A program made the position numbers and the translations under genes. A model generated the notes under the pieces. The model did not search any database. It was not told the DNA's origin and saw only the letters and a program-made list of their open reading frames with translations. A stretch of 64,000 nucleotides of DNA, taken from a virus (taxonomy: Duplodnaviria; Caudoviricetes). The stretch spans positions 17,974 through 81,973 of the IMG/VR virus record IMGVR_UViG_2639762749_000010; one strand, written 5' to 3'. Positions 8,489 to 52,923 of the stretch are shown piece after piece (the first letter of the stretch is position 1; each line of letters opens with the position of its first letter).

Positions 8489-9530
8489 TGGGAACCCCCA
8501 AAATCATTCTGGTGCTGTAGGCAACACGTTCTTCAAACTGCGTCACGCGCTCCACAATCATATTCTTGGGTATCGATTCATCAATGCGGTTATCAGGATC
8601 ATAACGATGAATAACCACTTGTATGACGGAACCCGCCTGAATCGCGGGATTTCCCGCACATTCAATGTCTAACTTTGGGATCAGAACCCGCCCCATGTTT
8701 TGCAGTGTCCCTAATTCTGCATCAGATACCATTTTCACCGGCAGTGAAGCATCCCCGAATGAACGATAGCCATCCGTCATGGAATAACCGACATAACGAT
8801 GCTGCTTTGACGCTGTAACCGCGAAATCTGAATTAAGGTTTCTCAGCTTTGTTATGCGGTACTTCGCTTGGGGATTGTTGTACTCGTATGTGAAAGCGGG
8901 TTTTGTTTTGATAAGGTTACTCATCGACTTCAAATGGATTTTACCTCTGGCCGTCCATGCCAACGCACCATGATCTTTTGCCACTTGTCGAACCAGGGTG
9001 GCAGGTTTTTGCCCCATGTTTAAATGATAGGTTCCAAGGCGGTTAAAGGGCTCAGTCACCGGCTTTAACCCTTTTGCCAGCGTGCGAATAATCTTCTCTG
9101 GTTCAGCATCGGCAAAAAAACGGGGAGTGCCGGTGGGGATCAGAAGAGTCCGCATAGCCGTAGAGATGCTGGTGATTGTCACGGTATCCATATTGAGTGG
9201 GGCAGAAACGATATAGAAATCCTCTTTAAATAATGCCTGTTCCCCTCCGGGATCGCCAAGCGTGACCGTGATCACTGCACCTTCTTTTACACCCATGTTA
9301 TCCAGAACGTAGCCGGTCACATCACGGATATTCAGTAGTAAAAGTGGGGCTGCTAATTTGGCAATTTCTATATACGCTACGGAGGTGACAGATTCTCGCG
9401 GTAATACCTCACCGTTGATCTCAATAGTCTGTAAAAGAAACTGATTAGATTGCTGTGCCATGACTGTCTCTGCGTATTGTCTGTGGTGCGGTGGTGACGA
9501 CGGTTTTCTCAATCTGTGGAACAACGGCAT
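8481..9530 (-). CDS. Baseplate hub/tail protein (P1 gp6-like; start probably ATG 9461)
   Basis: Size and position in gp26-25-7-24-6-5 order. Confidence 0.6.
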   Translation of the reverse strand: MPLFHRLRKPSSPPHHRQYAETVMAQQSNQFLLQTIEINGEVLPRESVTSVAYIEIAKLAAPLLLLNIRDVTGYVLDNMGVKEGAVITVTLGDPGGEQALFKEDFYIVSAPLNMDTVTITSISTAMRTLLIPTGTPRFFADAEPEKIIRTLAKGLKPVTEPFNRLGTYHLNMGQKPATLVRQVAKDHGALAWTARGKIHLKSMSNLIKTKPAFTYEYNNPQAKYRITKLRNLNSDFAVTASKQHRYVGYSMTDGYRSFGDASLPVKMVSDAELGTLQNMGRVLIPKLDIECAGNPAIQAGSVIQVVIHRYDPDNRIDESIPKNMIVERVTQFEERVAYSTRMILGVPSE

Positions 9531-10245: not shown

Positions 10246-10972
10246 GGTCTGTCCCTAATGCTGACTGACTAAAATTTCTGGCCGGTATGCAGTAATAGAG
10301 TGAACCCACGGATGCCGTACCATACGTGAAAATACGTAGCACATACCAAAATCGGCGGGCTAATTGACCATCGGATAATTCTTCGTTCCATTCAAATATT
10401 GAGCCTATCGATACGCCTGTCGCGGCGGCTCTGATAACTAAAAAATCATCGATACCACCATCTTGATCGCCATCAGAATCAACGGCAGTAAATGATTCCC
10501 GTTCATCAGGACAGTCCAACACCTTCACTTTTTGAGGATCGGTGTATGAAAGTTCTCTTTGATGGTTATTGAACTCAGTGAAAACCGGTATCTCAAGGCC
10601 ATCGTCATTCGCCTTTGTGGGGGCATCATCCCGGGGGCGATATAACAAAGCATCATAACTGTCTGGATCTTCCTCAATCATTTTTATCCAGTCCTGACGA
10701 ACGAGATCATTGAGGGGCGTGTGCCCTCTGTATCGGGGGCTCAGGTTTAAGTCTGGCTCTCTTGTGGACAGGTGTTGTGGCAGAACGGCTTGCGCCGCTA
10801 CGTCCTCATTTTCGACCAACGTCACGGTAGCGGGGGGCGGTGGCATATCATCTAAATCCACCAGCTCTGCATCCTGCGCTGATATGTGCGTGGTTGGCTG
10901 TAGCGGAGTGGAGCCCATTCCTGTGATTTCATTGTCTGGCCTCTCATCCAGCCATTCGTCATAGCGGCTCAT
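10232..10972 (-). CDS. Tail stability protein (P1 gp7-like)
   Basis: Size, synteny, C-terminal YGTASVGSLYYCIP. Confidence 0.55.
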   Translation of the reverse strand: MSRYDEWLDERPDNEITGMGSTPLQPTTHISAQDAELVDLDDMPPPPATVTLVENEDVAAQAVLPQHLSTREPDLNLSPRYRGHTPLNDLVRQDWIKMIEEDPDSYDALLYRPRDDAPTKANDDGLEIPVFTEFNNHQRELSYTDPQKVKVLDCPDERESFTAVDSDGDQDGGIDDFLVIRAAATGVSIGSIFEWNEELSDGQLARRFWYVLRIFTYGTASVGSLYYCIPARNFSQSALGTDHEQR

Positions 10973-12183
10973 GCGTTATTACCCCTAATCTGTTTTTTCA
11001 TATACTCGTTAAATGCGGCTTCAGCTTGTTCTTGATCATTTCCTGACATAATGAGCGCATCAATGAAGGATTGTTTTTTCAGATTGAAAGCATCTTTCAG
11101 CTGCTGTTTTAACAGTTGTTCCTGGGCTTTCATTCGGTTGATTTGTTCCTGCTTCTTTTGCAGTTTTAAACGTTGTGAATCAGTAAGCCTTTTCGCTTTC
11201 TTCAGCTGTGAGCGTAAGGCATCAATTTTCTTCGGATCTTGAGTCAGTTTTCTTTCCAGTGCCTCCATGCGTTGTTGATAACGCCGGTATTCACTTTTTA
11301 TCGCGTTGTGACTGGTTTTGCTTTTCCGGTTTCTGTTCAGTTGTTTTAGTTGCTCTTTCCCAAAAAACTCAGTTGTCTTTCTCTTATCATCCCCAAAGCT
11401 GGTGGTACGGGCATTTTTCTGTAACAGGCGGCCAACCTGCATTTGCCATGTTCCGGCCTGCATTCTGGTCATCGCATGAATAACGTGTTTACAGGCCACC
11501 CCTTTTAAGTTCGGGTTTCTGATTTTGGGGTAGATGTATTCTTTCGGGGGGCTAACCGCGAAATTCCCCGCTGTAGCAATATAGCGATACCAATAATGAT
11601 GACGGCCACAATCGCAATCAAATGACACTCGGCCAGTACACAACTGACGTACTACACGGGCGGTGTTGTTTTCTTTTTTTGACAGGTCTTCCATCGCGGT
11701 ATCCCATTCCTCAAAGCGGATCTTCACGCGGTGGTGTTTGTCTTCAGACTTGTCAGACGCAGTGACGCTGATAATAGCAACGTTGTGTTCCATACCGATA
11801 AATGAAGCTATTTTGATGCCTGATCCATCATCAACCGCATTATTTGCCCGCTTGACGTCAATATTGGTGCAATTCGCTATCAGCTGGATATAGGTAATTC
11901 CGGCGATGTTAGTATTGAATCCAGACCGAACTTTTTGTCGGTTTTTTTCAAACGCCTTAAGATCTTCTTTTGTGAAGAACGTCCCGTCGCGCTTCTTTCC
12001 CAAGGCAATAACATCATCAAAACTTTTATTTTTTAAAAGAGAAGGGGTGAGAAGCCGGGCAACCTTACGGCGGCGTTTGGCCTGCTGGTCGTTAGTGATT
12101 TGATTAAATAGCCGGTTAAATTCTTTTGGCATTAAACCATCAGTATCATACCGACCTGTTTCTGTGCGAGGAAAATTAATCAT
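10969..12183 (-). CDS. P1 gp25-like protein with SWIM-type Zn finger
   Basis: CDCGRHHYWY...CKH motif; synteny. Confidence 0.65.
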   Translation of the reverse strand: MINFPRTETGRYDTDGLMPKEFNRLFNQITNDQQAKRRRKVARLLTPSLLKNKSFDDVIALGKKRDGTFFTKEDLKAFEKNRQKVRSGFNTNIAGITYIQLIANCTNIDVKRANNAVDDGSGIKIASFIGMEHNVAIISVTASDKSEDKHHRVKIRFEEWDTAMEDLSKKENNTARVVRQLCTGRVSFDCDCGRHHYWYRYIATAGNFAVSPPKEYIYPKIRNPNLKGVACKHVIHAMTRMQAGTWQMQVGRLLQKNARTTSFGDDKRKTTEFFGKEQLKQLNRNRKSKTSHNAIKSEYRRYQQRMEALERKLTQDPKKIDALRSQLKKAKRLTDSQRLKLQKKQEQINRMKAQEQLLKQQLKDAFNLKKQSFIDALIMSGNDQEQAEAAFNEYMKKQIRGNNA

Positions 12184-17967: not shown

Positions 17968-18022
17968 GAGTTATCGGGGTTATTTTTTTGTTGACTCGTG
18001 GAGTTATCGGGGTTATTATACT
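17968..18022 (+). promoter_or_regulatory. hicAB promoter with direct-repeat operators
   Basis: GAGTTATCGGGGTTATT twice (17968, 18001); TTGACT-17-TATTAT. Confidence 0.65.
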
Positions 18023-22061: not shown

Positions 22062-23576
22062 TCAGCTTTCATCGTCATAATCATCAAGATACTTCATGGC
22101 CTCAGAGCGGGTAGCGGCTTCTTCAAAACCGACATCTTCACAGGCCGGTACAAAATCACACAACATCCCAAAACAATATGTATCCCATCTATCCGGAGAG
22201 CGAATATTGAGTTTCGCTCTCATCATCTCTTTTTTCATGATCACCCAGCGCCCGTTCTCATCAATCTTGACCGGTATTTTCGAGGCTTGTTCTGATGTCT
22301 TGAGGCTTTTATCCAGGCGCATTCGGCCACTGCGGATCGCACGTTGCGCGGCCACATTTGCGTAGGCGCGTTGATTAATGTACCGGCTGCGGTCATATCT
22401 GCTGAACATCGGCTTACCCCACCGGATACGCTGTACATCGCGGCCACGACGCTCTAATACACTCGCCGTATCGGAACCGACGCCATCACTGTCTACCACG
22501 AGACTGATATTGGGGTAAATGGCCGGATCACACGTCAAATGAATAAACTCCCCAAACTCCACCGGATCACAGGAGCCATCCATTTCCAGCATTTTGTAGT
22601 TCACCAGACGGCGTTTATCGCCACGGGTGCCCGATATTTTGCAAAGATTCATAATGGACTTATCCCGGCCGTTACCGACGTCACACAGGGCAACCCATCC
22701 CCAGCCTTTTTCAAGGTGGATTTTACGTCTCGCGGCTCTGTCACATTCATCACGCCCTAACAGATAGCCGGTGACTGATTTAGGAAACTGGCCTAATACC
22801 TTGATCTGGTATTCAACACTGTCACGGCCACCGTATTCTGCCAGCTTCATTTTAATAAATTCAGGCTCAACGAGGGGGGACTCTTCAGAGTTCAGCATGA
22901 TAGCCACATACAGGCCGTTGGGGTTATCAGGATGTCTGGCGAGGCTATGGTGCGTATCGTAGAAATACCCGCTGGGGCGCGTCGGCTGGGAAAGTAACAG
23001 GATGCGGTTATCTTTCTGAGTCAAGGCACCGGTGATAATACCAAAGGCTTTGTCTGATACTCCTGATGCCTCATCCACAATGTAAAACAGGTATTCCGCG
23101 TGTTCACCGGCCAAGGCTTCTTCGTTACCCAAACGAAACCCCTTGGGGATGACGGTCCAGACGCCTTTTCCCCCCACCGCGTAAAACGACGTATCCGTAA
23201 TGACAAAGTAATTTTGCAGCCACGGGAACCGCCGGACACATTCATGCCAGTTGACCTTCAGGTACTTAAATATCCCCGTCATGACCTGCTGGATTTTGTT
23301 GGCAATGATGATCACACGGGCATTGGGATGAAACAGAATGAAACACAGGATCATGATACTGGTCATATCCGATTTGCCCGTACCATGCCCCGACGTCACG
23401 CTGGTTTTGCTGCCACCTTCCTGTACAGACTCAAGAATCAGATCTTGTTGCCATGTGGGGGTTTTACCAAACAGCTGTACCGCCGCCAGCCCCCAGTCGT
23501 ACCGGTATTTGATCACCATATCCCGCCAACGGGGATCACTGACAACACTGCGTTGTTTTTTCTGTCGGGATGCCAC
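22062..23576 (-). CDS. pacB: Terminase large subunit PacB
   Basis: Walker [17 protein letters not shown]-terminal SPDRWD. Confidence 0.93.
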
Positions 23577-31507: not shown

Positions 31508-33076
31508 TCATTGATAATCGACAATGGGTTCTTTTCGCTTCCCAGCTGCTAACTGTTCGGGTGAAAAACCTTCATTATCACCTCTATCAAATTGACTCTT
31601 CATATAAGAAAATTGTTCATCTGAAATTTTCTCTTTCACCACTGAAAATCCAGAGGCATTCTCTTTGGCAACGTAGAGACCTTCTTTATGAAAATGGTTT
31701 AATATTGCTTTAGCCTGCTCTTTCATTGACGTATTGGCGTTTGCCATTCCAATTTGGCGACCTGTTCGGTTATTCAGCATATCAATCGTTTCATCAGCAT
31801 CTGCGGACGTTTTGAAATGGCGAACACTCAAATCTAACGTGTCATATCGTTCATGTGCATCAGCCACACGAGAGGCTATTTCCTTACCGTATTTAGCGGT
31901 AATTGCAGATTGCCATAGTGTATGTCGAAAGGCATTAACCTGGCTACCCTCCCTGCGATCATTGTCCTGAAGTACTCCGTAAGGGTTTGTCTCACGCGAT
32001 CCCTGCGTTGAAAAACGCAGTGCGCTAGTTGTCATATTCGTACTGCCTTGAGAAATCCCCCCTATATTGAAGACCTTGTCTAGGTTACTAACGGCAAACA
32101 TGTATTGTTGTATGTCTCGCTGCAAATTAGTTTTCTTTCCCGAGAAAAAATCATATTGGTTTTTAACAAGATCTTTATGGTCGCTATTGCTAAAGTCACT
32201 TTTAAGAAAATCTGTAGTTAACTTACCAATATTTTTTACATATGTACTCATTTGACCAAATTTATCGAACTCTTTGACAAGTTCATCTAGTACGAAAATA
32301 TTTTTTAATGTTGGAGCCATATTGTTATATAATTCTTTAATGGCTGAATTAAAATCCCTTTTACCCCATTGGGTACTCCTTCCAGTACCTTCCACACTAC
32401 CCATATGGTGGTAAAAGTTATCATATTTTGATTTCCTGGATTCATTTCCATAAGCAAATATTTGTAATGTGGTTTGAGCATTAGATGATAAGCTCTTAAA
32501 TGAACCTATTCTGTTATCTAGTAAATATCTATCTTCAAAAAGCCCTTTTAGATTATCCATGGTTGAATAAAACCGCTTACCTTCAAGCATAGATAAATGG
32601 CTCATCACAACAGGCGCTGTAGAGTTAAACATATTTTTGATATTTAATAATGGTTGAGTAAAATGGTAATCACTCCTCATTAGCGCGAATGTCTCACCAT
32701 TAGGCTTATTACGATATTTGTCCAGTAGTCCCAATGCCTTATTTATTTCCTTTTCTATAAAAGGACACTGTTTTCTTGAACAAACTGGACATATTCCCTC
32801 CTTTCCATTAGCTTGCCAAAGTTTAGCCATATCATGAGCGCTAATTCCTCCACCTGGTGTGTAAAGGGCACCATCCGTTAGAGTTTCACGCGGCTTCGCA
32901 TAGGAACCATACCCAATACCAGGAAAAATGTTAGGAGTAGATGGCATAAAACTAGATTTCAATCTGTTTAAAACGTCTCTCCCGCTGATTGTCGCCGGGA
33001 TAATTTTAAGAATTCTCTTTCCATCCGCAGTATATGGAATACCATTTTCATAATATGCAATTAAATTATATGACAT
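31508..33076 (-). CDS. Putative polymorphic toxin (DUF6973-like C-terminal domain)
   Basis: NAFRHTLW...ADAHE...DMLNNRTGR motif; AT-rich. Confidence 0.6.
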   Translation of the reverse strand: MSYNLIAYYENGIPYTADGKRILKIIPATISGRDVLNRLKSSFMPSTPNIFPGIGYGSYAKPRETLTDGALYTPGGGISAHDMAKLWQANGKEGICPVCSRKQCPFIEKEINKALGLLDKYRNKPNGETFALMRSDYHFTQPLLNIKNMFNSTAPVVMSHLSMLEGKRFYSTMDNLKGLFEDRYLLDNRIGSFKSLSSNAQTTLQIFAYGNESRKSKYDNFYHHMGSVEGTGRSTQWGKRDFNSAIKELYNNMAPTLKNIFVLDELVKEFDKFGQMSTYVKNIGKLTTDFLKSDFSNSDHKDLVKNQYDFFSGKKTNLQRDIQQYMFAVSNLDKVFNIGGISQGSTNMTTSALRFSTQGSRETNPYGVLQDNDRREGSQVNAFRHTLWQSAITAKYGKEIASRVADAHERYDTLDLSVRHFKTSADADETIDMLNNRTGRQIGMANANTSMKEQAKAILNHFHKEGLYVAKENASGFSVVKEKISDEQFSYMKSQFDRGDNEGFSPEQLAAGKRKEPIVDYQ

Positions 33077-42800: not shown

Positions 42801-43628
42801 GGTTGCCGTGCCGTTCTCTTCAAACGTGCCTGACGGTAGACGATGTGCCCCTAAAAACTCCGCCTTACGTGAAACCTGTTCACGTAACTTGGTGTAGGTT
42901 TTTCCACTGGTCATGCCATAGGGAACCACAATGCAGGCCAATCCGTTCGGCTTAATTTTGTCTAAAATACGGAGAACAAAATACACCCCCACGTTTTTAA
43001 CGTCTGAATACTCCGGGTCTAAATGGGCAAAACCGCCACGACTGGCACCAAAGGGCACATTACCCAGACAGCTATCAAAGTAATCATCAGGAGTATTGGA
43101 GGCGAGCTTTTCAAACGGGGAGATGGAAACCTGATCTTCAGGGTGCAGCAACTGATTAATCCGGCCTGATATTTCACTGATTTCGGTTGAAGTACAGATA
43201 ACGCCTTTGGGTTTTGTTTCCTGAAATACGCCGGTGGCCGCTGAAGGCTCCAGCATATTGCCGGTATCAGCACCATAGGCTTTCATCATTTCCCACATGC
43301 CAGCGGCGACATGCTGGGGGGTGTAGTATTCATATTCAGAACCGCCAATCCCCCCCAATCCGGTATAACCTGCCAAGATCTGGCGCTGTTCGTCCGTTAG
43401 TGTATATCCATCAAAATCAGGCGGGAGTGAATCAAGCAAAGCAATCGCTTCAGCATTGGCTTGTTTTCTCTTTCTTTCAATACTGACCCCCGCTGATTTT
43501 GTAATGCCAAAGCTGGCCGGTGATCTTGTTAATGAGGCGGAACGGATAACCCTAATCAGTTCAGCAATGCTGGTCACACCTAAAAACAACGAAGGATCAC
43601 TTTTTGTCGAGGTTAATTTATCGCCCAA
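36891..43628 (-). CDS. darB: DarB antirestriction protein (methyltransferase plus SF2 helicase)
   Basis: 2245 aa; EYYTP, LEPSAATG, NVPF; GTGLGKT, IDEGHNY, TATP, QRNGRGAR. Confidence 0.93.
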   Translation of the reverse strand: MGDKLTSTKSDPSLFLGVTSIAELIRVIRSASLTRSPASFGITKSAGVSIERKRKQANAEAIALLDSLPPDFDGYTLTDEQRQILAGYTGLGGIGGSEYEYYTPQHVAAGMWEMMKAYGADTGNMLEPSAATGVFQETKPKGVICTSTEISEISGRINQLLHPEDQVSISPFEKLASNTPDDYFDSCLGNVPFGASRGGFAHLDPEYSDVKNVGVYFVLRILDKIKPNGLACIVVPYGMTSGKTYTKLREQVSRKAEFLGAHRLPSGTFEENGTATAVDIWVLRKHPVDLAEKILMADEPALKSANVLWETYLAGKWFEREGRKFQHGESSIEGAGKFKRLVVKNDQITAGEMKRNLAHKFESRIDWAALNLIEPDVAPMAEGEKRFINGRWYQMESGRLVYDAGAKATKLDPTRYGVTTYEELSERLSTSEGLLSLTFEQISAIASNYPETLPAEYRSIITFARMQPPSVREKAYRGSVIGKRIAVMQDLMASGAAGEKLETRRAEVEQLITQEVARGANPHHGRRVNVSGSGAADWLKFKASVTQDGQLSDLIQGTLDIGVQDAHDSTDPEAVIRHLFSQIDLDPVTLAAFRAHYTGELPADDEALLAWLADKEGVAISADGNVLPMDRATSGDIGLMNSQILAVLPYTREGAVKENYLRQLVEIKNKRKWTEVDNITFSLNSRWMDRRLMLEFLNEQGYDALKYIEKVEVEEGQLVSDLSYRGKHGVFVGYRHKTVMTKDKDTGQTIPQYKRVRGKDGFADQLENYLNGIKPRGQNEAVYLERIKRLEEDFNVWLRQHDEIDGLVQQYNDAFNAYIPYEHSAASLNLSGISGKRTPFGYQNTEVRRLSEDGRGILGFGTGLGKTTTGMALEAYNFENGRSKRTPIVVPKAVLENWYHEAQSFYSKEALKSFLFVGLDEVLDDEGHHRQVPVLDENGQPKLDKNTGEPLYRNAIKIASSATIKERMNLIPQSNYRAVVMTKEQYAAIPLREETITDNAYDFLFAQAEAGRVNLDGQKHKDAQKKNRILADGSNTGSQKQQDFPYFEDMGFDNAIIDEGHNYRNSYAAGREASMLAYLPTSAMAKSARDMAVKNAYLMKNNNGRGAVMLTATPLVNSPIDAFNMLSHVIPMAEWQRMGIYTPDDFVKVFGMTESVQVQKISGEIETKLGLVGFQNLDGLRGLFHRWATLKEAKDVSNEVAIPDVVPQTESVPMTAYQQAVYEELRLRADALSKSKEEKERDARYDGYEEKPEDSIFAIIRDMDRVCTDPDLYNRTITFRFDKSHLNAVNALRDDLPLSVTDTDDDDDETVTASAEALVREEGKFVALVVSELYEKEVIQRLGMFGLSEDDITHPIPPKYSKLIANLKKSMVGGGKQIIFSDEKTQHEKLRRIIAQALGMKREDIGILNATTVAQAAKSNTKKLKKVKRPAEPKEDATPDQLNKYYEQKAAFDEYVAAQNDVSLGGLEKIAADYNEGRTPIIICNKKAEVGINLHIGTTAMHHLTLPWTPASLNQRNGRGARVGSSSASVKAYYYCGQGSFDEFRLDTLKRKANWIKDILTSDEAIMANADANNAEEMRLLLAADPEERERVRREQIEKAETLAKAKAKQRAEIDLTNYLKAKHASKGDSQSVEDTIKDYQAKIDDNKARLEDGHAKSPDAQKMLREQIAKYTDAITKQERLLVRMRQSENLIKRLRPEIKHAIDAGYLDVEPDILEHAAEYYVDKDKRLLRTGRVYYCRMPYREGSYYFDQFLVRVKAINIDTGIATVDQLWCDDKNGQLRNAAATLVTSLEAEADFSDSELVLKTWMFGGVSISDVASRLNRQQFYAYLKSGDLVLKDYDVFYRTEGSFDTHKLNGMLSNWLRENADNIVYPDANDEVLKSKVAEHYRGSSYRASSIGFLIALFGTDYRTAIDSYGETASPSLITELVAEYISDKLSNYGSESENMSGSGSAQLRHFLETGQYDASHFIKNAFGYRTFSVPSQYRNTVDFDREFAEQCQVIVARLNDAVAKQGKAAAHKEYRVFKSSLNSSLASVVERVQAFPTSNFRSFQDNYFENTAGYDKNFATLFADAVALGIIEEHDITESHFLNVQRHDGLFSEINQGYKKLRYGVGRWDEIKLKAGLISQEEVDKANAEKAQIEQETQKMRIAQLENNIIVKTNITAIRGGKGANRYDYAPDGCYCFNDIRGKDGALFEAKDELKVDFSATYYNGRNPSDELAGSWWLISKEHPLDKILAVIQRHE

Positions 43629-43707
43629 TGTTCACGTCTCTAAATAAAGGTTTACTAGAATCGCCAATTCTAATAAACCTTTAATTTATGACTGGCGGGG
43701 AATAACC

Positions 43708-45378
43708 GTGAAATCCAAAACGTCGTGGTCGCCAATAGACATTCTGCGCAAGTTACTGCCCGCTCATGCTGAACGTGATGACTTGCACGGCGTGCCTATA
43801 GCAGGCAGTAACGGGGCGATCGTTTCCCGTTCGGGGATCGCGCTATATAAAAATGATGATTCAGATGTGTTTACCTCCACCGGCGATGAAATTCATGCCA
43901 GTACTCAGCTTCCTGAAGAACGGTTATCGAAATACGCCATTTTAAGCATGATGGCGAAATCCCCCACCGTTGCCGCCGCACTGAATATCCACATTTCCAA
44001 TGCGTTAAGCATGGACAAAAAATCCCGTTCCATCATCACCATTGAGCCCAAAGACACTGCGGATAATGAACTCAGTCAACGCTGTAAAGAACTGCAAGGC
44101 GATCTGGGTAAATTAATCAACGCAAACCTGCCCAATTGGGCCCGCATCATGACGGTGTTCGGTACATCATACATCCGGCCATATGCGGAAAAAGGGAAAG
44201 GCATCATAGCACTGGAAAGTGACTATCATACCCTGCCCCATTTTGTTCAGGAGTTTGTGCGCGGTGGTCAACTGGCGGGATTCACCGGCGATTTTTTACT
44301 GCACCCTGAAACCTATCAGCGTGTCATGGCGCAACCGTGGGATCTCATCACCATGAGACTACCAATATGGGTGCCCAGTTATGACAATCGGCCAATGATG
44401 TATGGCAGTAACGGGTTTAGCCTGCTCTCTTCCATCGACGCATCACCATTACGAGAAACCCAAAATTACGGTGCCAGCTTTCTTGAACATTCTTATGAGG
44501 CATTCGTCAACCTGTGTGATGCACTGAAGGCGCTCAAAGCCACCCGAAATAACGCGGCCAAAATTGACCGCCTCGTTGCCCTGACAACAAACACACTCGA
44601 TCCCGTGCAAGCCGCCAGCTACACACGCTCGGTGACACAGGGATTAAAGCGGAATGCGGTCGAAATCCAGCGCCGCATGATGAACGGAAACGCCCTTCCC
44701 ACCGTGATGAACCATGTGATCCCGGTCATGAGTGACGGGAAAGGCGGCATTGTGATTGATACCCAAACTATCCCTGCCGACATTACAGGGATCGAAGATG
44801 TGATGTTTCATTTACGCCAGCTGGCCGCGTCACTGGGTATCGATGCCACGATGCTGGGATGGGCAGATCAAATGAGCGGGGGCCTTGGTGAAGGCGGATG
44901 GCAACAGACATCAAGCAGTGCGGCTGAACGCAGTGATTGGATACGCCACGGTTGCGCGGAAGCGATTTATCGCATCATCGATATTCACTGTGCCTTCAAA
45001 TACGGCAAGGTTTTTCCGCCCAATGACCGCCCCTACCAGATCACCTTTAATTCCCTGAATACGGCCATTCAGGAGCAACGAAACCGCGAACTCGATAGCC
45101 GGGCTAACTATTCTGCGCAGGTTGTGACCGTGGTCGATGCCCTGCTCAATAACCCGAAAATGAGTGGTTCAGACACATTCATGCAGTACACCTTGGCCGA
45201 CACAATGGAAATCGATCCCGATACCGCTCAGGCCATGATTAAAGAATTCAAGGCCACTCAGGACGATAAAGAGAACAACGACATGATGGAATCAGTCCCA
45301 TTCACCGGAGCTGAATTCGATATCGAATCCATGAGCCATGAAGAACTTAAAACTCTCTTCAAATTTATTACTAAATAA
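43708..45378 (+). CDS. prt: Portal protein
   Basis: Divergent from darB as in P1; size; SGGLGEGG motif. Confidence 0.8.
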   Translation: MKSKTSWSPIDILRKLLPAHAERDDLHGVPIAGSNGAIVSRSGIALYKNDDSDVFTSTGDEIHASTQLPEERLSKYAILSMMAKSPTVAAALNIHISNALSMDKKSRSIITIEPKDTADNELSQRCKELQGDLGKLINANLPNWARIMTVFGTSYIRPYAEKGKGIIALESDYHTLPHFVQEFVRGGQLAGFTGDFLLHPETYQRVMAQPWDLITMRLPIWVPSYDNRPMMYGSNGFSLLSSIDASPLRETQNYGASFLEHSYEAFVNLCDALKALKATRNNAAKIDRLVALTTNTLDPVQAASYTRSVTQGLKRNAVEIQRRMMNGNALPTVMNHVIPVMSDGKGGIVIDTQTIPADITGIEDVMFHLRQLAASLGIDATMLGWADQMSGGLGEGGWQQTSSSAAERSDWIRHGCAEAIYRIIDIHCAFKYGKVFPPNDRPYQITFNSLNTAIQEQRNRELDSRANYSAQVVTVVDALLNNPKMSGSDTFMQYTLADTMEIDPDTAQAMIKEFKATQDDKENNDMMESVPFTGAEFDIESMSHEELKTLFKFITK

Positions 45379-45384
45379 CCTCTG

Positions 45385-46443
45385 TTGTGCCGACTTTTGA
45401 GGAAAAAAGATATGAATAATTTAATGACCGTCACTGACCGCTTTTCGGTAATTGACAACATTCGCAAACACACCCCACAGAATGCCAGAAACTATGTACT
45501 CAGTTCGGTTAAAGCATCACTGGAAAGCAACGAAGTTAAAGAACGCATGGCATTAGGCGAACTCTACGGTTTCTATGGACATAACCGGCGCGAAGAATAT
45601 TACAAACGCACAGGAGAGTTACGACTACCTGAAACCAGTTTTATCATGATCGATGGAAAACCGGTCGCATTGGACAATGTACCGTCCAACAGAACGGTCG
45701 CGATTAACATCGACGATTCAGGTATTATTAGCCACTCTCAGGAAATATTAGACACGGATACTGGCCGAATTGTTAAAGGCATGGAACGCTCACGAGCTGG
45801 GGGTTGGAGTTGGGTCACTGGCGGGTCAGACAGCCCTTGGAAATCTGTAGTACGCCGTTTTTACGGTTTCGATTATGTCACTACCCCCAATTACATCAGC
45901 CTCGATCGTGAAATCATGATGGCGGAATCGGCATCAGACCGGCAAAGCCACATTGTCCTGGCATTCGTTAACTCAGGTTTTAGCGAAAGCGCCGCCATTG
46001 ACCTCTCCGACCATTTTGAAAAAATGCGTGAACGCGACATGATGATCGAATCAGTAAACCGCGCCCAGACCGCTGAAGGGGAGTTGTTGGTTTTATCCGG
46101 TCGTTTATTGGAGCTTAACCAAAAAATTGAGGCACAGGATGCTATGCTGGAAGCTGTACAGCGAAACAATGACCTTCGCAAACGTTATCTCCAATCCGCA
46201 ATAGACAAACTGCCGGTATTCCTTTCTGAAGAACAAAAAAACGCCATGTTACACATGGAAACGGAAGATGATTTACAGATCGTTGCCGCCATTTTCGAAT
46301 CCGTCGGCAACGTTGATTTTGGCCGGCTTCCATTAGGCCAGATAACGGGCTATCAACCCGCTCCGCATAAACGGACTTCAAAATCACTCAGCCAAGCCCC
46401 TATTTTTTCGTTAAAGACGCCAAGGCCACCGAAATTTAGCTAA
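45385..46443 (+). CDS. pro: Head processing protease (start probably ATG 45412)
   Basis: GFYGH..R, GGWSW, GFDYV..PNY; follows portal. Confidence 0.8.
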   Translation: MCRLLRKKDMNNLMTVTDRFSVIDNIRKHTPQNARNYVLSSVKASLESNEVKERMALGELYGFYGHNRREEYYKRTGELRLPETSFIMIDGKPVALDNVPSNRTVAINIDDSGIISHSQEILDTDTGRIVKGMERSRAGGWSWVTGGSDSPWKSVVRRFYGFDYVTTPNYISLDREIMMAESASDRQSHIVLAFVNSGFSESAAIDLSDHFEKMRERDMMIESVNRAQTAEGELLVLSGRLLELNQKIEAQDAMLEAVQRNNDLRKRYLQSAIDKLPVFLSEEQKNAMLHMETEDDLQIVAAIFESVGNVDFGRLPLGQITGYQPAPHKRTSKSLSQAPIFSLKTPRPPKFS

Positions 46444-46700
46444 GGACACTGTATAGGGATTTCTGCCTCGCCTAATATTAGACGAGGCTCGTGTTAAGAC
46501 TGAGGTAGTTATACTCGTATTTTGTCGGGCGTTTGATACGTATTTTTGATACTCATTTCACTTAAAACTATGGGCTATTTACATACTCATGTAAGCCTAT
46601 CTCACGCATGACCATTGGTATACACTAAGTTAAACTCCCGTGATTGCTTTGCCATCTATCTGATACATTTGGCGATGTAAAATATGTAAGAGATGAATAA

Positions 46701-47588
46701 ATGTTACAGTTTGATTTCGGTTCTTCGGATGCTTTTGAGCGAGTTATATCTCAGTTTGAAGAAATGGCTGCGTATGAGGCGTTGTGGTCTGAGAAAGGTG
46801 CGACATTTAAAACCATTGCAGATAAATTTAGGCAAGCTCCTAATACGTTGCCCTCAACGCTGGTTACAAAAAGTGTTCGAGAAGATTTTAAAAGGATGTT
46901 GAGAGAGATTTTTGAACTCTATTCGGTTGATAATTTAGGAATTAGAGTTCATGGAACTAATGAGTATCCTAAAAAATTAAGAGACGCTCAAAATCCAATA
47001 GAAGTTTTTTACTATCAGGGAGGGTGGGATCTAATAAATACTCGCTGCATTTCTGTTATTGGTTCTCGTGAAGTATCTGAGGAAGGGAAACGGAGAACAA
47101 GAAAACTGACTAATTACTTGGTAAATGATGGTTTTACAATTATCTCTGGATTGGCTAAAGGGGTTGATACTGAAGCACATAAAACAGCGCTTGCATTAGG
47201 CGGAAATACAATTGCGGTTATTGGCACCCCTCTTTCTCATTTTTATCCAAAGCAAAATATTGAACTGCAAAAATTTATTAGAAAAAACCATCTCTTAATT
47301 AGTCAAGTTCCGTTTAAATACTATCTGGATAACGATTACAGGACAAACAAATTGTTCTTTCCTGAACGTAATATAACCATGTCCGCATTATCAGAGGCTA
47401 CGGTTATTGTAGAGGCTTCTGATACATCGGGAACGCTGACGCAAGCAAGAGCTGCGCTTAATCAAGGCCGCAAGTTGTTTATACTGGAAAGCTGTTTCAA
47501 AAACAGCTCAATTTATTGGCCTGCAAAGTATGAAGCCAGGGGAGCTATCAGAGTCAGAGATTATCAGGATATCAAGAATTACGTGTGA
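46701..47588 (+). CDS. DprA/Smf (SLOG) family protein
   Basis: VIGSR, ISGLAKGVDTEAH, FPERN..MS, VEASDTSGTL..AR.AL.QGR. Confidence 0.92.
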   Translation: MLQFDFGSSDAFERVISQFEEMAAYEALWSEKGATFKTIADKFRQAPNTLPSTLVTKSVREDFKRMLREIFELYSVDNLGIRVHGTNEYPKKLRDAQNPIEVFYYQGGWDLINTRCISVIGSREVSEEGKRRTRKLTNYLVNDGFTIISGLAKGVDTEAHKTALALGGNTIAVIGTPLSHFYPKQNIELQKFIRKNHLLISQVPFKYYLDNDYRTNKLFFPERNITMSALSEATVIVEASDTSGTLTQARAALNQGRKLFILESCFKNSSIYWPAKYEARGAIRVRDYQDIKNYV

Positions 47589-47730
47589 AAGAAGCGGGAC
47601 TAAAAAATGGCATTAATAATACGCACAGATAACACCATAGCGCCCGTTGACAAAAAGCATTTCGTCGATAAAGGGTACTTCAAACTACTCGCATGACCCA
47701 AAGGATTAATCATTCATTTTTCAATCTATA

Positions 47731-47759
47731 TTGACCTAATTTCTAGGTCATTATATAGT
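47731..47759 (+). promoter_or_regulatory. Sigma70 promoter with overlapping palindromic operator (acr operon)
   Basis: TTGACC-17-TATAGT; inverted repeat TGACCTA-N5-TAGGTCA at 47732-47750. Confidence 0.8.
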
Positions 47760-47817
47760 TAGTACATAGCAAGGGAAACATCCCGGCTTCAATCCGACAA
47801 ACCAAGAGGATTCTACT

Positions 47818-48198
47818 ATGAACAAGTCTCAAATTTTCTCATCCGCTCACAAAATAGCCAAAAACACAGTTGCAACTGTTGGCAACTACATGATTGCTTT
47901 CTCTCTGGCTCTGCGTGATATCTATAGCTCAATGAACAACACTGAAAAAAAATTGCTCTCCATGGGATTCAAGGCATGGGAACGTAACGGTCATCGCCGT
48001 ATCTATATCAACATTGAGCGATTCGAAGAAGTTTTCGGATTGAAAGTCAGTTTCTATAAAACAGGTAATATCAGTTCAGCCAAATTAAATGGTGAGAAAA
48101 TATCTAACTCCAAAGCCTGTGAGTTAATCCCACTGAAAGCGTTTTATGATTGCGTCAATAACGAATGGAACTGCGGCAAACTGAAACCAATTTTCTAA
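47818..48198 (+). CDS. Candidate anti-CRISPR/anti-defence protein
   Basis: First gene of acr-like operon; MNKSQIF..AH N-terminus resembles recalled AcrIF20 start; function by association only. Confidence 0.5.
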   Translation: MNKSQIFSSAHKIAKNTVATVGNYMIAFSLALRDIYSSMNNTEKKLLSMGFKAWERNGHRRIYINIERFEEVFGLKVSFYKTGNISSAKLNGEKISNSKACELIPLKAFYDCVNNEWNCGKLKPIF

Positions 48199-48260
48199 TG
48201 CAACCGAGGTAAGGGGGTTACACCCGACCTACATCCAACAAACAACTAGAGGATTTTGAA

Positions 48261-48461
48261 ATGACTACTATAACTATTAATACCTATGATGTTGCCGGGC
48301 GTTTCGATATGACAAAAGAAGAGGCCAGAAAATGTTTTCAACACGTTGAGACGTTAGCTATTGATGCTAACTATAACGTAGATTACACAGAATCCCTATA
48401 TACAGATGAAGAAAGCGAGAGATTTGTAGAAAAAGCATTCCAAAGTTATTATCCAGAATAA
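48261..48461 (+). CDS. acrIE8: Type I-E anti-CRISPR AcrIE8-like
   Basis: [10 protein letters not shown]...RF.M..EEA...F..VE..A...[14 protein letters not shown] closely matches AcrIE8 as recalled; small and acidic. Confidence 0.8.
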
Positions 48462-48518
48462 ATAAACCAATCCAAATGAAGCCCTGCGTCAGTGGGGCTA
48501 TTTTCATAAGGCGAATCT

Positions 48519-48908
48519 ATGGACAATCGAGAGAAATTAATAAAAGCTGGCGAAATGATTTTTGGCAGCCAATGGCAATCCCCCATGGCTCGCCTATTAG
48601 GGGTGGACTCTCGTGCCGTGCGTCGTTATGTCGCTGGCAATTCCCGCGCCCCCATGACCTACCGATTAGTCGATTCGTTAAAACAAAAAAAACAAGAAAT
48701 TGACGAGGCCATTACGTTAGTCGAATCAGATTTAATATCAGGAGATTGCGTCACGCCAGAATTGATTGAATCGATTGTATCGCGATACACCTATGAGAAC
48801 GATGATCATCGTCAACTGGCAGTGGATGCCATCAAGAAATCAATTTACGAAATGGTTTACCTATCAGACTTAAATCAGATAGCCAAAAAATACTCATCTC
48901 AACAATAA
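48519..48908 (+). CDS. HTH protein, putative Aca-type regulator
   Basis: QWQSPMARLLGVDSRAVRRYVAG HTH; last gene of acr operon. Confidence 0.65.
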   Translation: MDNREKLIKAGEMIFGSQWQSPMARLLGVDSRAVRRYVAGNSRAPMTYRLVDSLKQKKQEIDEAITLVESDLISGDCVTPELIESIVSRYTYENDDHRQLAVDAIKKSIYEMVYLSDLNQIAKKYSSQQ

Positions 48909-48916
48909 GAATACAG

Positions 48917-49298
48917 GAAAAGTCCCCGTCAATACGGGGAACATAAATTAATAATCAATAGAAATGAAAATAAAAGCGGTTCAACCCCGTAAAACGGGGA
49001 AAATAAGTTGATATCCACCAAAAAGACGAATAACAACGGTTCAACCCCGTTTCACGGGGAACATAAGTTGATATCCACCAAAAAGACGAATAAAGATGGT
49101 TCAACCCCGTAAAACGGGGAACGAAATAACAATAAAAGTGAAAATAATAACGGTTTATCCCCGTTTCACGAGGAACGCCATAATCATAAAAATGAAAGTG
49201 GAAATTATAACGGTTTATCCCCGTTTCACGAGGAACGCCATAATCATAAAAATGAAAGTGGAAATTATAACGGTTTATCCCCGTTTCACGAGGAACAC
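48917..49298 (-). CRISPR. Cas-less type I-E-like repeat array, block B (7 repeats; eroded eighth near 49325)
   Basis: 28-nt repeats at 48917, 48977, 49037, 49097, 49151, 49211, 49271; minus strand e.g. GTGTTCCTCGTGAAACGGGGATAAACCG; spacers 32,32,32,26,32,32. Confidence 0.85.
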
Positions 49299-49374
49299 CA
49301 AATTAATCAATTTGAAAATAACAACGACTTATTCCCAATTCCCATTTACATGATGAACAATTATATTATAGCTA

Positions 49375-49626
49375 TTATTCTGATTTCATCCAACCAATTA
49401 ACCCGTCACAAAATTCATCGAACTGTTGATCTGACATTGGCCTGAATCGGGGAACGGTTTCTGCGGTACTATTCCCTGATGCCTGTTTTCTGGCATCAAC
49501 TGCCCGACCCCATCCGTCAATTTGAGATTTAGAATATTTCCCTTGTAAAATATCAAAAATCTCATTGCGATTAAGCCTCAATGCAAGACAGATTCGTCTG
49601 AGATTTTGATTATTTCTTACAGACAT
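49375..49626 (-). CDS. DUF1456/YehS-like protein inside the array
   Basis: NNQNLRRICLAL...SKSQIDGW...MSDQQFDEFCDGLI; AAGGT RBS. Confidence 0.65.
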   Translation of the reverse strand: MSVRNNQNLRRICLALRLNRNEIFDILQGKYSKSQIDGWGRAVDARKQASGNSTAETVPRFRPMSDQQFDEFCDGLIGWMKSE

Positions 49627-49684
49627 AGTGAATTACCTTTTCAACATAATCGAAAGAGCCTTTCTAGCTTAATTTTAGGCCTTT

Positions 49685-49827
49685 AAAGCAATCCCCGTAA
49701 GACGGGGAACATGAGTTGATAATCACTAAAAGTGAAAGCACTACCGGTTTATTCCCGTCGGAACGAGGAACGTTAAAAACGTAATAATCAAAATAATAAC
49801 GGTTAATCCCAGCATGACTGGGAACGC
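49685..49827 (-). CRISPR. Cas-less type I-E-like repeat array, block A (3 repeats)
   Basis: Repeats at 49685-49712, 49745-49773, 49800-49827; spacers 32 and 26 nt. Confidence 0.75.
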
Positions 49828-49832
49828 ATTTA

Positions 49833-49860
49833 ATAATACACAGAAAATTAGTTAACTCAA
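49833..49860 (-). promoter_or_regulatory. Putative promoter for the array and DUF1456 gene
   Basis: Minus strand TTGAGT-16-TATTAT, placing +1 near the first repeat. Confidence 0.45.
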
Positions 49861-50090
49861 ATGCAAGTTAATTTTTTTTGACTCAAATCACTAAACCCCA
49901 GAGCCATTTGCTCTGGGATGGCAGTATGTTACCTCATCCAGTTTTAACTCTTCTTTGCCATCCATATCACCCCACAAAAACCATCAACACAGCGTGATTA
50001 TAAATATTAAAAGTTAAAAATTCCGAATAAAGTCAGTATCTTTAGATAAAAATGCCAAGAAAGTAAAATGGCACTTTATTTCAAGGCTGA

Positions 50091-50294
50091 TTAAGCATCA
50101 TGCTGAATAGGTACGCAGCCACCATAAACAAGAACATAACGCGGAGCAAGAATGCGGCGGGCTTCATACAATGATTCGGCTTTGATGGTTATGCGCTCTG
50201 GGATGGATTTTTGGTCAGCACGCACCTGCGCATAAAACAGGAATTTATAGGATTTTGGGCGCAGGTGTGCGCAATGATAATTATGATTAATCAT
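50091..50294 (-). CDS. icd: Icd-like host cell division inhibitor
   Basis: YKFLF...RAD...ITIKAESLYEARRILAPRYVLVY; downstream of c4. Confidence 0.75.
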   Translation of the reverse strand: MINHNYHCAHLRPKSYKFLFYAQVRADQKSIPERITIKAESLYEARRILAPRYVLVYGGCVPIQHDA

Positions 50295-50487
50295 GATGGT
50301 AATCGCTCTGTAATGGTAAAAAAATCACCACCAGAGAGGTTCCAATCTCTGATTGGTGGTGAGCTGAACGGAGTTGGAACTACCGGCCATTACAGCTACG
50401 GCGATTACCGAGGCAAACACTAATCCGGCCAACCTTGCGGTTGCTCCGCCCCGCCCACCATAAATTGGATGTGCATAGGCATGACAC

Positions 50488-50566
50488 AAAAAAAAGACGC
50501 AAGCGCGTCTGTGTCGCTGTAATGGTTATCGGGGTTCCAATCCCGACAGTAGGATTTACTACTGCC
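50488..50566 (-). ncRNA. c4: c4 antisense RNA
   Basis: GGCAGTAGTAAATCCTACTGTCGGGATTGGAACCCCGATAACCATTACAGC...; complementary targets at about 50373-50396; TTGACA at 50596-50601. Confidence 0.75.
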
Positions 50567-50939
50567 GTTTTAAAATACCCCTTTCCAACGGATCATGTCA
50601 ACAAGCCATTGACGTTAAATAATAGGGTTAAAATAAAATTCTAAATGAAAATTAGTTTTTAACTAAACATTAATATTTAAAAACAATATGTTATATAACA
50701 CATAACATAAAAATCTAAATAATAATTTATTTATCGTATTGATCTGAGAATCAGATCGCGTGTAGGATCGCCCTTGCTACACAGGCTCGACTATCACAAC
50801 ACTGTATTAAAATCCAGTTAAAAATGTATAGGCAAAAAAAAAGCGCCAGTTCATTGCTGACGCTCTTCTTTTCACCTATCGGTGGCACTTTCTTGTCGGC
50901 AAACAAGGAAGCAATAACAATTTAGATTGGAAACAAAAC

Positions 50940-51872
50940 ATGCAAATTTCACGGGATATTATAAACTCACGCAATCCATACATCAAGAAAAACGGACAAA
51001 TTTCAGGCTATGGCCTGAGTTTTATTATCAACCAATTACCTATTGATGTTCTTTCCCGTCCAGCCAAACAAATCTTATCTGTCGTCTCTGGAGTGGCTTC
51101 ATCTACATCCGAGTACAAAATCTACAAAACAAAACGCAACCTCAGCCTAGAATGTGGGACTTCCATTGCTACAGTGCGTCGCAATCTAAATAAAGCGGTA
51201 TCCGCCGGCATATTGACGAAAACCTATGTGTTTGATCCCCATGTTGGTCAACAAGCCACAGAATACAAATTCACTGATTCATTTCTAACCGTTGCGCTGG
51301 ACTGCATACAGGCCATAAAAGGGTATGTACGTAAGGATATTCGTAAAATTATCAATTGTGTTAGACAGATATTTCAGGGCAAGTTTAAATCACAAATGCA
51401 ACAGATCCCCCCCGATCAAAATGAACAGGGTGCCCCCGATCAAAATGAGCGGCAAAGAGAAGTAAAGCCCATAGACCAAGAAGAAAAGAAAAAGAGTATT
51501 CCGGCGAAACCGGAACCATTTTCTGTCAGTGTAAAAACAAGCACAACAGCCCTTGCTGAACGGGCAAAAACCAAAGCGCTTGATTATGCAGAAAGCGAGA
51601 ATATGAAACACGCTGAACGTCGTTCATTGAGAGAAAAGCTCAATAACCTCGTTAAGCGTCAAACATTTTTATGCGCTCGCACCTCATCACAATCCACCCG
51701 CAAAAATCAGGGTGCGAGTGCATCCTATCGGGATCGGATTGATAGAGAAGCTGGACAAGCAAGACAAGAGGCAGAATTGCGTTTTGCTGCGGCAAAAGAA
51801 AGCGGATTCGATCCATTGAATACCGTGCGCAATATCATGAGCATTCATTTTGGCCGTAAAGCAACTTCGTGA
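50940..51872 (+). CDS. repL: Lytic replication initiator RepL
   Basis: SGYGL...LSRPAKQILS...TSEY.IYK...TVRR...AV..GIL matches recalled P1 RepL; internal CCCCCGATCAAAATGA repeats at 51409 and 51433 (possible oriL). Confidence 0.8.
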   Translation: MQISRDIINSRNPYIKKNGQISGYGLSFIINQLPIDVLSRPAKQILSVVSGVASSTSEYKIYKTKRNLSLECGTSIATVRRNLNKAVSAGILTKTYVFDPHVGQQATEYKFTDSFLTVALDCIQAIKGYVRKDIRKIINCVRQIFQGKFKSQMQQIPPDQNEQGAPDQNERQREVKPIDQEEKKKSIPAKPEPFSVSVKTSTTALAERAKTKALDYAESENMKHAERRSLREKLNNLVKRQTFLCARTSSQSTRKNQGASASYRDRIDREAGQARQEAELRFAAAKESGFDPLNTVRNIMSIHFGRKATS

Positions 51873-52003
51873 TGAGACGCTATGTCCCCAGGCGAATGAG
51901 ATAGAACGACTACAATCTGAAATCTGATAAAAATCAGGTTGACTTTTGCCTTCATCAAATACACACTTTTAATGTATACTTAAAGTGTGTATTTGAGGTT
52001 ATT

Positions 52004-52222
52004 ATGAAACACAGAGTTAACGTAACAGTTGATAAAGAAAATTATCTGATTCTGAGTTCCGCCGGTGTAAATATTTCAGGTTTGGTTAATGACGTCATGA
52101 CCAGAGAAGCCCAACGAATCAAAGCTGAAAGCTGGAAAGCCGACAATCGCAAAGGGATGGAAGAAGTTGCTCAATTTATTGAACAATATGGCTCATTTGC
52201 TGATGAAAACAGGAACTGGTAA
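52004..52222 (+). CDS. ccdA: CcdA antitoxin
   Basis: MKHRVNVTVD...VNISGLV...GSFADENRNW; palindrome 51957-51994 upstream. Confidence 0.95.
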   Translation: MKHRVNVTVDKENYLILSSAGVNISGLVNDVMTREAQRIKAESWKADNRKGMEEVAQFIEQYGSFADENRNW

Positions 52223-52531
52223 ATGCAATTTGTTGTTTATCAATACAAACGGAGCGGAAGCCAATATAGCATGTTGGTTGATGTACAAAGCGACATCATT
52301 GAAACACCAGGAAGGCGTATGGTTATTCCTTTGGTTAAAGCGCATCATTTTTCAAACAAGGTAAGCTGGCATCTATTTCCCATCATACAAATCAGCGATG
52401 AAAATTACCGACTTTTAACAACAGAACTTTCAAGTGTTTCAGAAAGCGTAATTGGAGAAAAAATCACTGATGTGGGCCAATGGTCATCAGATATCAAAGA
52501 TGCGCTTAATCTCTTGTTTTGGGGGATTTGA
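52223..52531 (+). CDS. ccdB: CcdB gyrase poison
   Basis: MQFVVY.YKR...[19 protein letters not shown]...NLLFWGI. Confidence 0.95.
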
Positions 52532-52569
52532 CCTTATTTACGATTTTGTAGCACGACCATTGGTATAAG

Positions 52570-52923
52570 ATGAATCTAAAAAAACTTTTTGCCGTTAAAC
52601 GACCTTGCGTCAACTGCCCTTTTCTCAAAGAACAGGGTATTGCGTTGCACAAGGGAAGATTAGAGTCCATCAAGAAGGGGTTGTTAAAAGACGATCAGAG
52701 CGTGTTTCAGTGTCATAAAACGACATTCTCCACGGGGGGTTACTATGACGAAGAACATGTTTATCACGCTTCCGGCAAAGAGTCTTTCTGCGCTGGCGCA
52801 ATGGGTTGGTTGATGTTGCAGGGTAGCCCCAATGTTGCCATGCGATTAGGTCACGTTTATAGACTTATCGATTTGAATGAATTGAAAATTACAGCCCAAT
52901 CAATATTGGAATGGAAGGAGTAG
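52570..52923 (+). CDS. Hypothetical Cys/His-rich protein
   Basis: PCVNCPF...FQCHKT...CAGA putative metal-binding pattern. Confidence 0.65.
   Translation: MNLKKLFAVKRPCVNCPFLKEQGIALHKGRLESIKKGLLKDDQSVFQCHKTTFSTGGYYDEEHVYHASGKESFCAGAMGWLMLQGSPNVAMRLGHVYRLIDLNELKITAQSILEWKE

Follow-up and report, generated by a model that had tools for sequence, protein, structure and literature searches.

A two-block array of crRNA-like units in a P1-like phage: candidate guides that would steer Xenorhabdus Cascade to a promoter near cas

Why does a phage without cas genes carry two blocks of CRISPR-like repeats, and what would the short RNAs made from them do in the host cell? The question is raised by a stretch of 64,000 nucleotides (nt), hereafter the window, which comprises positions 17,974 to 81,973 of the IMG/VR virus record IMGVR_UViG_2639762749_000010 (Duplodnaviria; Caudoviricetes; 81,973 bp). 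On the minus strand of positions 48917-49825 it bears two blocks of type I-E-like repeats, one on either side of an open reading frame (ORF) of 83 amino acids (aa), ORF83. An earlier note on this DNA had left two options for the RNAs of this array, non-targeting decoys or guides that steer Cascade to AT-rich promoters for repression. The guides appear to be the best-supported option: the spacers copy a host chromosomal unit located upstream of cas3, and a partial target flanked by a protospacer adjacent motif (PAM) abuts a promoter there. With a probability of roughly 0.7, we read the two blocks as a phage-borne array of the Cracr type, a source of CRISPR RNA (crRNA)-like molecules that steer the host Cascade to a promoter near cas.

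The crRNA sense is that of the minus strand, and the repeat cores of 26-27 nt consist of GTTCC, a hairpin and an 8-nt handle ending in ACCG. The array comprises nine units with eight distinct spacers and is organised as follows.

49685..49825, minus strand: Block A, from the repeat layout; a repeat, the 26-nt spacer A1, a repeat, the 32-nt spacer A2 and a terminal repeat.
48917..49350, minus strand: Block B, from the repeat layout; a degenerate first repeat, the spacers B0 (26 nt), B1 and B2 (32 nt), B3 (26 nt) and B4-B6 (32 nt), and a terminal repeat.
49833..49860, minus strand: promoter-like site immediately preceding the repeat that opens block A (9/12 hexamer positions, 16-nt spacing; a consensus match only).
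49360..49389, minus strand: promoter-like site at the 3' end of ORF83, just upstream of block B (10/12 hexamer positions; a consensus match only).

Read from 49825 to 49685, the gaps between the repeat cores of block A measure 28 and then 34 nt; between the 26-nt cores of block B, from 49350 to 48917, they measure 28, 34, 34, 28, 34, 34 and 34 nt. All nine gaps are therefore 34 or 28 nt, which a 28-nt repeat definition turns into spacers of 32 or 26 nt, the two lengths that the earlier note had given. Its further description of the spacers as U-rich, with one exact and one near duplication, was equally accurate: T makes up 56% of the spacers as against 28% of the minus strand of the window, B1 and B2 are identical, and the differences between B4 and B5 are confined to positions 2 and 3. 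The handle and the 34/28-nt spacing are retained in 9/9 of the handle-spacer-hairpin units. The first repeat of block B is reduced to its handle (49350-49325), and the terminal repeat of both blocks, again as described before, possesses the hairpin and has lost the handle. A degenerate 26-nt repeat pattern has 7 matches in the window, all of them within the array region. In the homologous cassettes L011 and L012 a -35/-10-like pair, read by eye, is located just before the first repeat.

The hairpins bear the marks of selection. In 21 repeats, drawn from the phage itself and from three related cassettes of prophages, 97.3% of the stem cells are paired, and the 14 double-sided stem changes compare with 2.5 in column shuffles, a count reached by 0/500 shuffles; sliding the partner column lowers the paired cells to 41-61%. 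The statement that the stems vary yet stay paired is thereby borne out. The stem of the commonest repeat variant contains a U.G wobble on the minus strand, which on the plus strand is a C.A mismatch, and the corresponding fold energies are -8.3 and -4.4 kcal/mol; a wobble on one strand only, together with this energy difference, indicates that the minus strand is transcribed. Covariation and strand-specific wobble combined argue for a hairpin that is under selection on a minus-strand transcript. With the exception of the loop, which is one base shorter, the phage repeats match the I-E repeats of Xenorhabdus and keep their hairpin. Two Xenorhabdus species, X. yunnanensis and X. ehlersii, have two Cas6e matches each, and the cores of their long I-E arrays measure 27 nt and recur every 61 nt.

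Where do the spacers come from? The array was searched by BLAST against 36 Xenorhabdus species genomes and the matches were inspected. The T-rich phage spacers have chromosomal homologues in the form of single repeat-spacer-repeat units, which either stand alone or lie at a host array's trailer end, as do T-rich members of the family in L034 and L036. The chromosomal unit was observed in at least 11 of the 36 genomes and lies 1-1.7 kb upstream of cas3 (L051-L054). When 22 units were aligned (8 from the phage, 9 chromosomal and 5 from prophages), one common spacer consensus emerged, and spacer-to-unit identity is strongest at the PAM-proximal end. Leading identical runs were scored against nine chromosomal units, with 2000 shuffles each.

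B3: leading run of 19 nt, reached by 0/2000 shuffles.
B0: leading run of 12 nt, 0/2000 shuffles.
A1: leading run of 10 nt, 1/2000 shuffles.
B5: leading run of 9 nt, 5/2000 shuffles.
B1=B2: leading run of 4 nt, 232/2000 shuffles.
B4: leading run of 1 nt, 1072/2000 shuffles.
A2: leading run of 0 nt, 2000/2000 shuffles.
B6: leading run of 0 nt, 2000/2000 shuffles.

Four of the eight distinct spacers (B3, B0, A1 and B5) hence share at least 9 PAM-proximal nt with the spacer of a host unit of the CreA/CreR kind. The first 10 nt of A1 are those of the chromosomal unit of genome G036; B5 agrees with the unit of G018 over its first 12 nt and at 24/27 scored positions (0/1000 shuffles). The earlier note held that the units had arisen by duplication rather than by Cas1-2 acquisition. 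The alignment does portray them as paralogues, yet only B1=B2 and B4/B5 look like duplications in situ, and the relatedness of the units comes mainly from descent from one host regulatory unit. A similar qualification applies to the proposal that the spacer lengths are held at six or five Cas7 subunits: the 34/28-nt rule applies throughout the array, but the gaps in homologues vary (28, 29, 33, 34, 35, 37 and 51 nt), which goes part of the way towards the free length variation that would speak against it. A form shorter by 6 nt is common to B3, B0, A1 and the chromosomal unit of G027, and judged by this identical gap the 26-nt class of spacers is inherited.

The chromosomal unit is itself followed by a plausible target. 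Some 75-120 nt downstream from each unit lies a site that agrees in part with the spacer of that unit; with every sixth base left out of the count, 14-19 of the 20 scored positions match. The best downstream site of a unit has the PAM AAG in 5/9 chromosomal units and ATG in 1/9; G018 combines a score of 18/20 and a run of 10 with the PAM AAA, and in some species two or three AAG sites are arranged in tandem. As read by eye, the site ends next to a -35-like box some 60-70 nt before a conserved small ORF of 116 aa with an HTH_Tnp_1 domain (E=7.6e-8), which is followed by a glyoxalase-family ORF and then by cas3-cse1-cse2-cas7-cas5-cas6e-cas1. A target beside the -35 box is the geometry reported for creA-creP. 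Unit and site occur together at L052:5526-6133 and also in L051, L053, L054, L035, L036, L038-L041 and L059. Like CreR and CreA, the unit is a degenerate mini-CRISPR beside a cas locus with partial complementarity to a PAM-flanked promoter site, and it possibly represents a module of the CreA/CreR or the CreA-CreP-like kind. It may also be an RNA of the NilD type, an identity that is only a lead. NilD of X. nematophila is reportedly (Veesenmeyer and colleagues, 2014) a free-standing single I-E repeat-spacer-repeat CRISPR RNA that depends on Cas6e and has been proposed to regulate endogenous genes. In G021 (L052:5032-5283, minus strand) a gene for a MazE-type antitoxin is located between the leader of the host I-E array and the regulatory unit.

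How well do the phage spacers fit the host site? The clearest case is B5 at the promoter-proximal site of G018, a species genome that also carries a twin of the phage at 98% identity. Positions 1-20 all match except 6, 12 and 18, and the pair scores 18/20 with a run of 17, a result reached by 0/2000 shuffles. Every sixth position is a base that Cascade flips out and leaves unpaired, as structural work on type I-E complexes has established. B5 is thus partly complementary to the promoter site that the host regulator targets. A seed search that required a PAM (regions of 13 species, 70 positions, 1000 shuffles) gave PAM-flanked seeds for A1, B0, B3 and B5, whose runs next to a canonical PAM were reached by 7, 3, 10 and 12 of 1000 shuffles, respectively.

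The array travels with a protein-coding partner.

49375..49626, minus strand: ORF83, the 83-aa ORF between the blocks, conserved in three more (pro)phage cassettes of Xenorhabdus, downstream of such a block each time.

Copies of ORF83 in X. yunnanensis and X. ehlersii are 81% and 69-70% identical to it. The family counts 2 proteins among 5.8 billion, the window's own included; two database relatives, both from Xenorhabdus, and an additional copy in genome G030 were found, and each of these three relatives is preceded by a short block of repeats of the same type. In the G030 prophage cassette (L033, G030:C2, minus strand 996-1806) repeat units flank the ORF83 homologue in a two-block layout like that of the window. 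The cassettes also resemble the units of their own hosts: the downstream unit in G030 has 10 leading nt in common with the chromosomal unit of that genome, and for the X. ehlersii prophage the figure is 17. Altogether there are four independent cassettes with the same ORF partner, and the cassette is found in unrelated prophage backbones. ORF83 has a weak Pfam match to DUF1456 below the cut-off and no family above it, and no match below E=0.5 among PDB sequences. Its predicted structure has four helices (pLDDT 79 in the best model, 41-53 in the other four) and weakly resembles XRE-type HTH folds, and at E<=0.001 Foldseek returned nothing from the PDB and viral libraries.

How would such an array act? 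We propose that promoters of the array's own would drive its minus-strand transcription and that host Cas6e would cut at its hairpins, giving products of 60 and 54 nt that would load into the host Cascade with six or five Cas7 subunits. With pairing limited to the PAM-proximal ~10-20 nt, these complexes would bind and keep the promoter closed without calling in Cas3, and they might draw Cas proteins away from immune crRNAs as well. The eight spacer variants would serve for the forms that the regulator takes in different Xenorhabdus species. The promoter under control would drive the gene of the 116-aa HTH_Tnp_1 protein and, beyond it, the glyoxalase-like gene and cas3. The pay-off for the phage could be either a lower expression of cas, following the logic of CreR, or the silencing of an alarm gene while a neighbouring anti-CRISPR (Acr) acts, following that of CreA and CreP.

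What kind of phage carries the array, and what stands around it? The window contains matches to portal and tail proteins (PHROG), a 2245-aa ORF of DarB size, and an isrK-like RNA together with a C4 antisense RNA (Rfam, 68 and 64.7 bits), which jointly identify a P1-like phage or phage-plasmid. Cse1 was not found in the phage contig, and 7 Cas proteins of X. ehlersii gave nothing below E=0.3 when compared with it by tblastn. The contig is a P1-like phage without cas genes, and the array lies on a virus, outside any CRISPR-Cas locus. The neighbouring features are these.

50091..50601, minus strand: P1-type immunity region with a promoter-like site, the isrK-like RNA, the C4 RNA and a 67-aa ORF (Rfam, PHROG, promoter consensus).
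50565-50490, minus strand: isrK-like RNA (Rfam).
50465-50352, minus strand: C4 antisense RNA (Rfam).
50294-50091, minus strand: 67-aa ORF with a repressor-type PHROG match.
47674..49989, no strand assigned: variable cargo segment with a plus-strand small-gene operon, both arrays and ORF83 (comparison of the twin phages).

The immunity region is situated upstream of the arrays on the same strand, and the arrays occupy the place where a P1 immunity operon would continue. The twin phage, a contig of G018, is 98% identical to the window at 43000-47673 and 96% at 49990-52818; the intervening 2.3 kb (operon, both arrays and ORF83) are replaced in it by unrelated DNA, in which there is no Pfam match and no I-E-like repeat within 6 edits. 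Neither the X. bovienii CS03 megaplasmid nor G013 has the larger island 46443-50090, and in both a gene for a 352-aa tail-like protein almost directly adjoins the C4/isrK region. Island and segment together form a cargo hot spot, and from the replacement in the twin phage and the absence of the island elsewhere we conclude that the array is swappable cargo. When viral contigs were scanned for the repeat pattern, I-E-like repeats turned up in 8 stretches; the surroundings were GC-rich and unrelated in every case, and no relative of the array was among them. Three unrelated GC-rich IMG/VR contigs (L003, L004 and L006) carry I-E-like repeats in pairs, with 5-nt loops, and could represent additional phage mini-arrays.

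A need for such cargo can be read from the host arrays. Among 413 distinct host spacers extracted from the fetched loci, which are a biased sample, nine agree with the phage sequence at 28-30 of 32 positions; X. ehlersii supplies eight of them and G035 one. The nine protospacers have the PAMs AAG (4), AAA (2), AAT, ATA and GTA. Seven are located in the window (8869-8900, 10948-10979, 23272-23303, 32104-32135, 32326-32357, 43054-43085 and 51292-51323) and two more upstream of it. PAMs one base away from AAG could reflect escape from targeting. Host spacers that target the phage would be a selective pressure under which it would need the array.

Several observations weigh against the array as a set of guides to the promoter near cas. 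The twin phage in G018 does without the array, and the PAM at the G018 site that B5 fits so well is AAA and not AAG. When no PAM is required, B5 alone stands out, the runs of B0, B3 and A1 being reached by 52, 110 and 182 of 1000 shuffles. Half of the eight distinct spacers (A2, B1=B2, B4 and B6) are without an identified target; they show no leading match of at least 9 nt to any sampled unit and are unremarkable even with a canonical PAM (437-998/1000 shuffles). X. yunnanensis has a prophage cassette and no T-rich chromosomal unit in the three array-flanking regions examined. The shorter loop is found in all internal phage repeats (a 26-nt core against the 27-nt core of the host), and a one-base loop deletion made Cas6 processing inefficient in the experiments of Liu et al. 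(bioRxiv 10.1101/2024.10.29.618823). Finally, a second promoter-like sequence, read by eye, precedes the glyoxalase ORF between the 116-aa ORF and cas3, and on account of it the control of cas3 is only presumed.

We regard a more elaborate version of the guide hypothesis as tentative and on balance rather unlikely. In it the chromosomal unit upstream of cas3 would be the NilD-type RNA, for which an explanation has long been missing, and would form a guard comparable to CreA-CreP: Cascade loaded with its RNA would keep the HTH_Tnp_1 alarm or regulator gene shut, and the loss of Cascade would open it. The phage array would be a master key for the whole genus, keeping the guard closed across species while the neighbouring small-gene operon disables Cascade immunity. 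The 32- and 26-nt forms of Cascade would further be distinguishable by the co-encoded Acr, as forms of Cascade have been shown to be by AcrIF24 in type I-F.

Do the spacers need a target at all? In a pure decoy of the kind of the RNA anti-CRISPRs (Racrs), the repeats would only tie up Cas6e and Cas7 in unproductive complexes, whatever the sequence of the spacers. This would suit the four spacers without an identified target and the presence of many hairpins on one or two transcripts; Racrs are established (Camara-Wilpert et al., Nature 2023, PMC10651486), and the main text of the Cracr preprint assigns a sequestering role to such arrays as well (10.1101/2024.10.29.618823). A decoy does not, however, account for the conserved homology of the spacers to that of a host regulator, with which they agree best at the PAM-proximal end, for mismatches between B5 and its target at every sixth position only, for handles and a 34/28-nt spacing kept in 9/9 units, or for prophage cassettes that match the unit of their own host. 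We consider it improbable as the whole explanation.

The array might instead be a targeting mini-array that employs the host Cascade and Cas3 against competing phages and plasmids or against the host chromosome; phage mini-arrays that serve in conflicts between elements are known (PMC11656645). The searches offer little to such a role. Positions 48917-49825 gave matches no better than chance level by blastn at E<=10, with a best E of 0.08 among 50,697 phage records and of 0.8 among 72,556 plasmid records, the low-complexity filter being on, which may have removed AT-rich matches; in a search of the same collections with 48400-50700 the C4/isrK part alone was matched. The perfect protospacers in competing elements that would have contradicted the earlier note were thus not seen in the phage and plasmid collections. 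There was no full protospacer in the 36 Xenorhabdus genomes, and a fuzzy search of the 82-kb phage genome found no self-target within 9 mismatches for the 32-nt spacers and, for the 26-nt spacers, AT-rich matches with 6-9 mismatches only. The one match that a targeting role could invoke is that of B6 to an intergenic site in G023 (L047, minus strand ~1501-1532), located between a LysR-like gene and a gene for a small membrane protein as read from the translated flanks. There the first 24 nt agree at 23/24 positions (BLAST E=6e-4 per genome, borderline over 36 genomes), but the PAM is TAA and a 1-nt indel follows further on. Since the spacers are moreover paralogous to each other, we find this explanation very improbable.

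There is equally little to recommend the idea that the phage regulates itself by taking the host Cascade to its own promoters, for example in the immunity region. A candidate site exists at 50725-50700 on the minus strand, upstream of the isrK/C4 promoter: its first 9 nt are as in A1 and B3, and it matches A1 at 20/26 positions next to an AAA PAM. This match lies in AT-rich DNA, was assessed without a shuffle control and could be due to chance; better matches are found in the host cas loci, and the cassette occurs in unrelated prophage backbones. The T-rich relatives at the trailer ends of the host arrays in L034 and L036 might suggest that the phage has captured a fragment of such a trailer, now decaying without function; this is hardly credible given promoter-like sites of the array's own, compensatory changes in the hairpin, handles that are kept, four independent cassettes with the same ORF partner and eight diverged variants in place of one copy.

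If the array does guide Cascade to the promoter near cas, the RNA-based hijacking of CRISPR self-regulation extends to the insect-pathogenic Xenorhabdus and to P1-like phage-plasmids. The crRNA-like module beside Xenorhabdus cas3, of which no prior description was found, may supply a concrete target for the NilD-type RNA. The pair formed by B5 and its target, mismatched solely at the flipped-out sixth positions, would be a natural test case for Cascade binding without cleavage.

How, then, does the locus compare with known systems? It is not a canonical type I-E array: the repeats differ, the spacers are paralogous, cas genes are lacking and the collections searched yielded no protospacer. With the Racrs (PMC10651486) it has in common that a phage encodes repeat mimics without cas genes that engage Cas proteins, here by prediction. 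Racrs, as described in that source, are solitary repeat units that act by sequestration; the array is not a solitary mimic without a sequence-specific guide, and its units match a host regulator and the target of that regulator.

The host side of the system is best compared with CreR/CreA and CreA-CreP as outlined in the respective preprints (bioRxiv 10.1101/2023.03.10.532045; 10.1101/2024.01.05.574328). Like these, the Xenorhabdus unit is a degenerate mini-CRISPR beside cas genes, and it has a spacer partly complementary to a site next to a PAM; the site ends just ahead of a -35 box, after which comes a gene for a small protein. In contrast to them, it is located upstream of cas3 and not in a cas intergenic region, the gene presumed to be regulated encodes an HTH_Tnp_1 protein, and repression is predicted from sequence.

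The closest relatives of the phage array are the Cracr RNAs, for which the main text of the preprint gives 219 candidates, lists 30 arrays and reports tests of one I-E array from a Salmonella prophage (Liu et al., bioRxiv 10.1101/2024.10.29.618823, version of 2026-07-28). The words 'Xenorhabdus', 'Photorhabdus' and 'P1-like' are absent from that main text, and the supplementary tables may list the contig; our literature search found no paper that joins Xenorhabdus and Cracr. The Cracr arrays and the present one are elements of phages without cas genes whose repeat-like sequences imitate the repeats of the host, whose spacers copy a crRNA-like regulator of the host over at least 9 PAM-proximal nt (here in 4/8 spacers), and which combine several different spacers per array with adjacent Acr-candidate genes. 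The differences are of scale and of target. Whereas the I-E arrays in the main text of the preprint have two or three spacers, this one distributes nine units, eight of them distinct, over two blocks separated by an ORF, a multiplexing that, if the reading is correct, goes far beyond those arrays. Its spacers are 32 or 26 nt long, those of the tested Salmonella array 24 and 21 nt; its presumed target promoter precedes the HTH_Tnp_1 ORF upstream of cas3, not casA; and the Salmonella array has been tested at the bench while the array described here is known from its sequence alone. Taken together, the likenesses and differences make it a probable, and unusually large, representative of the recently described Cracr kind.

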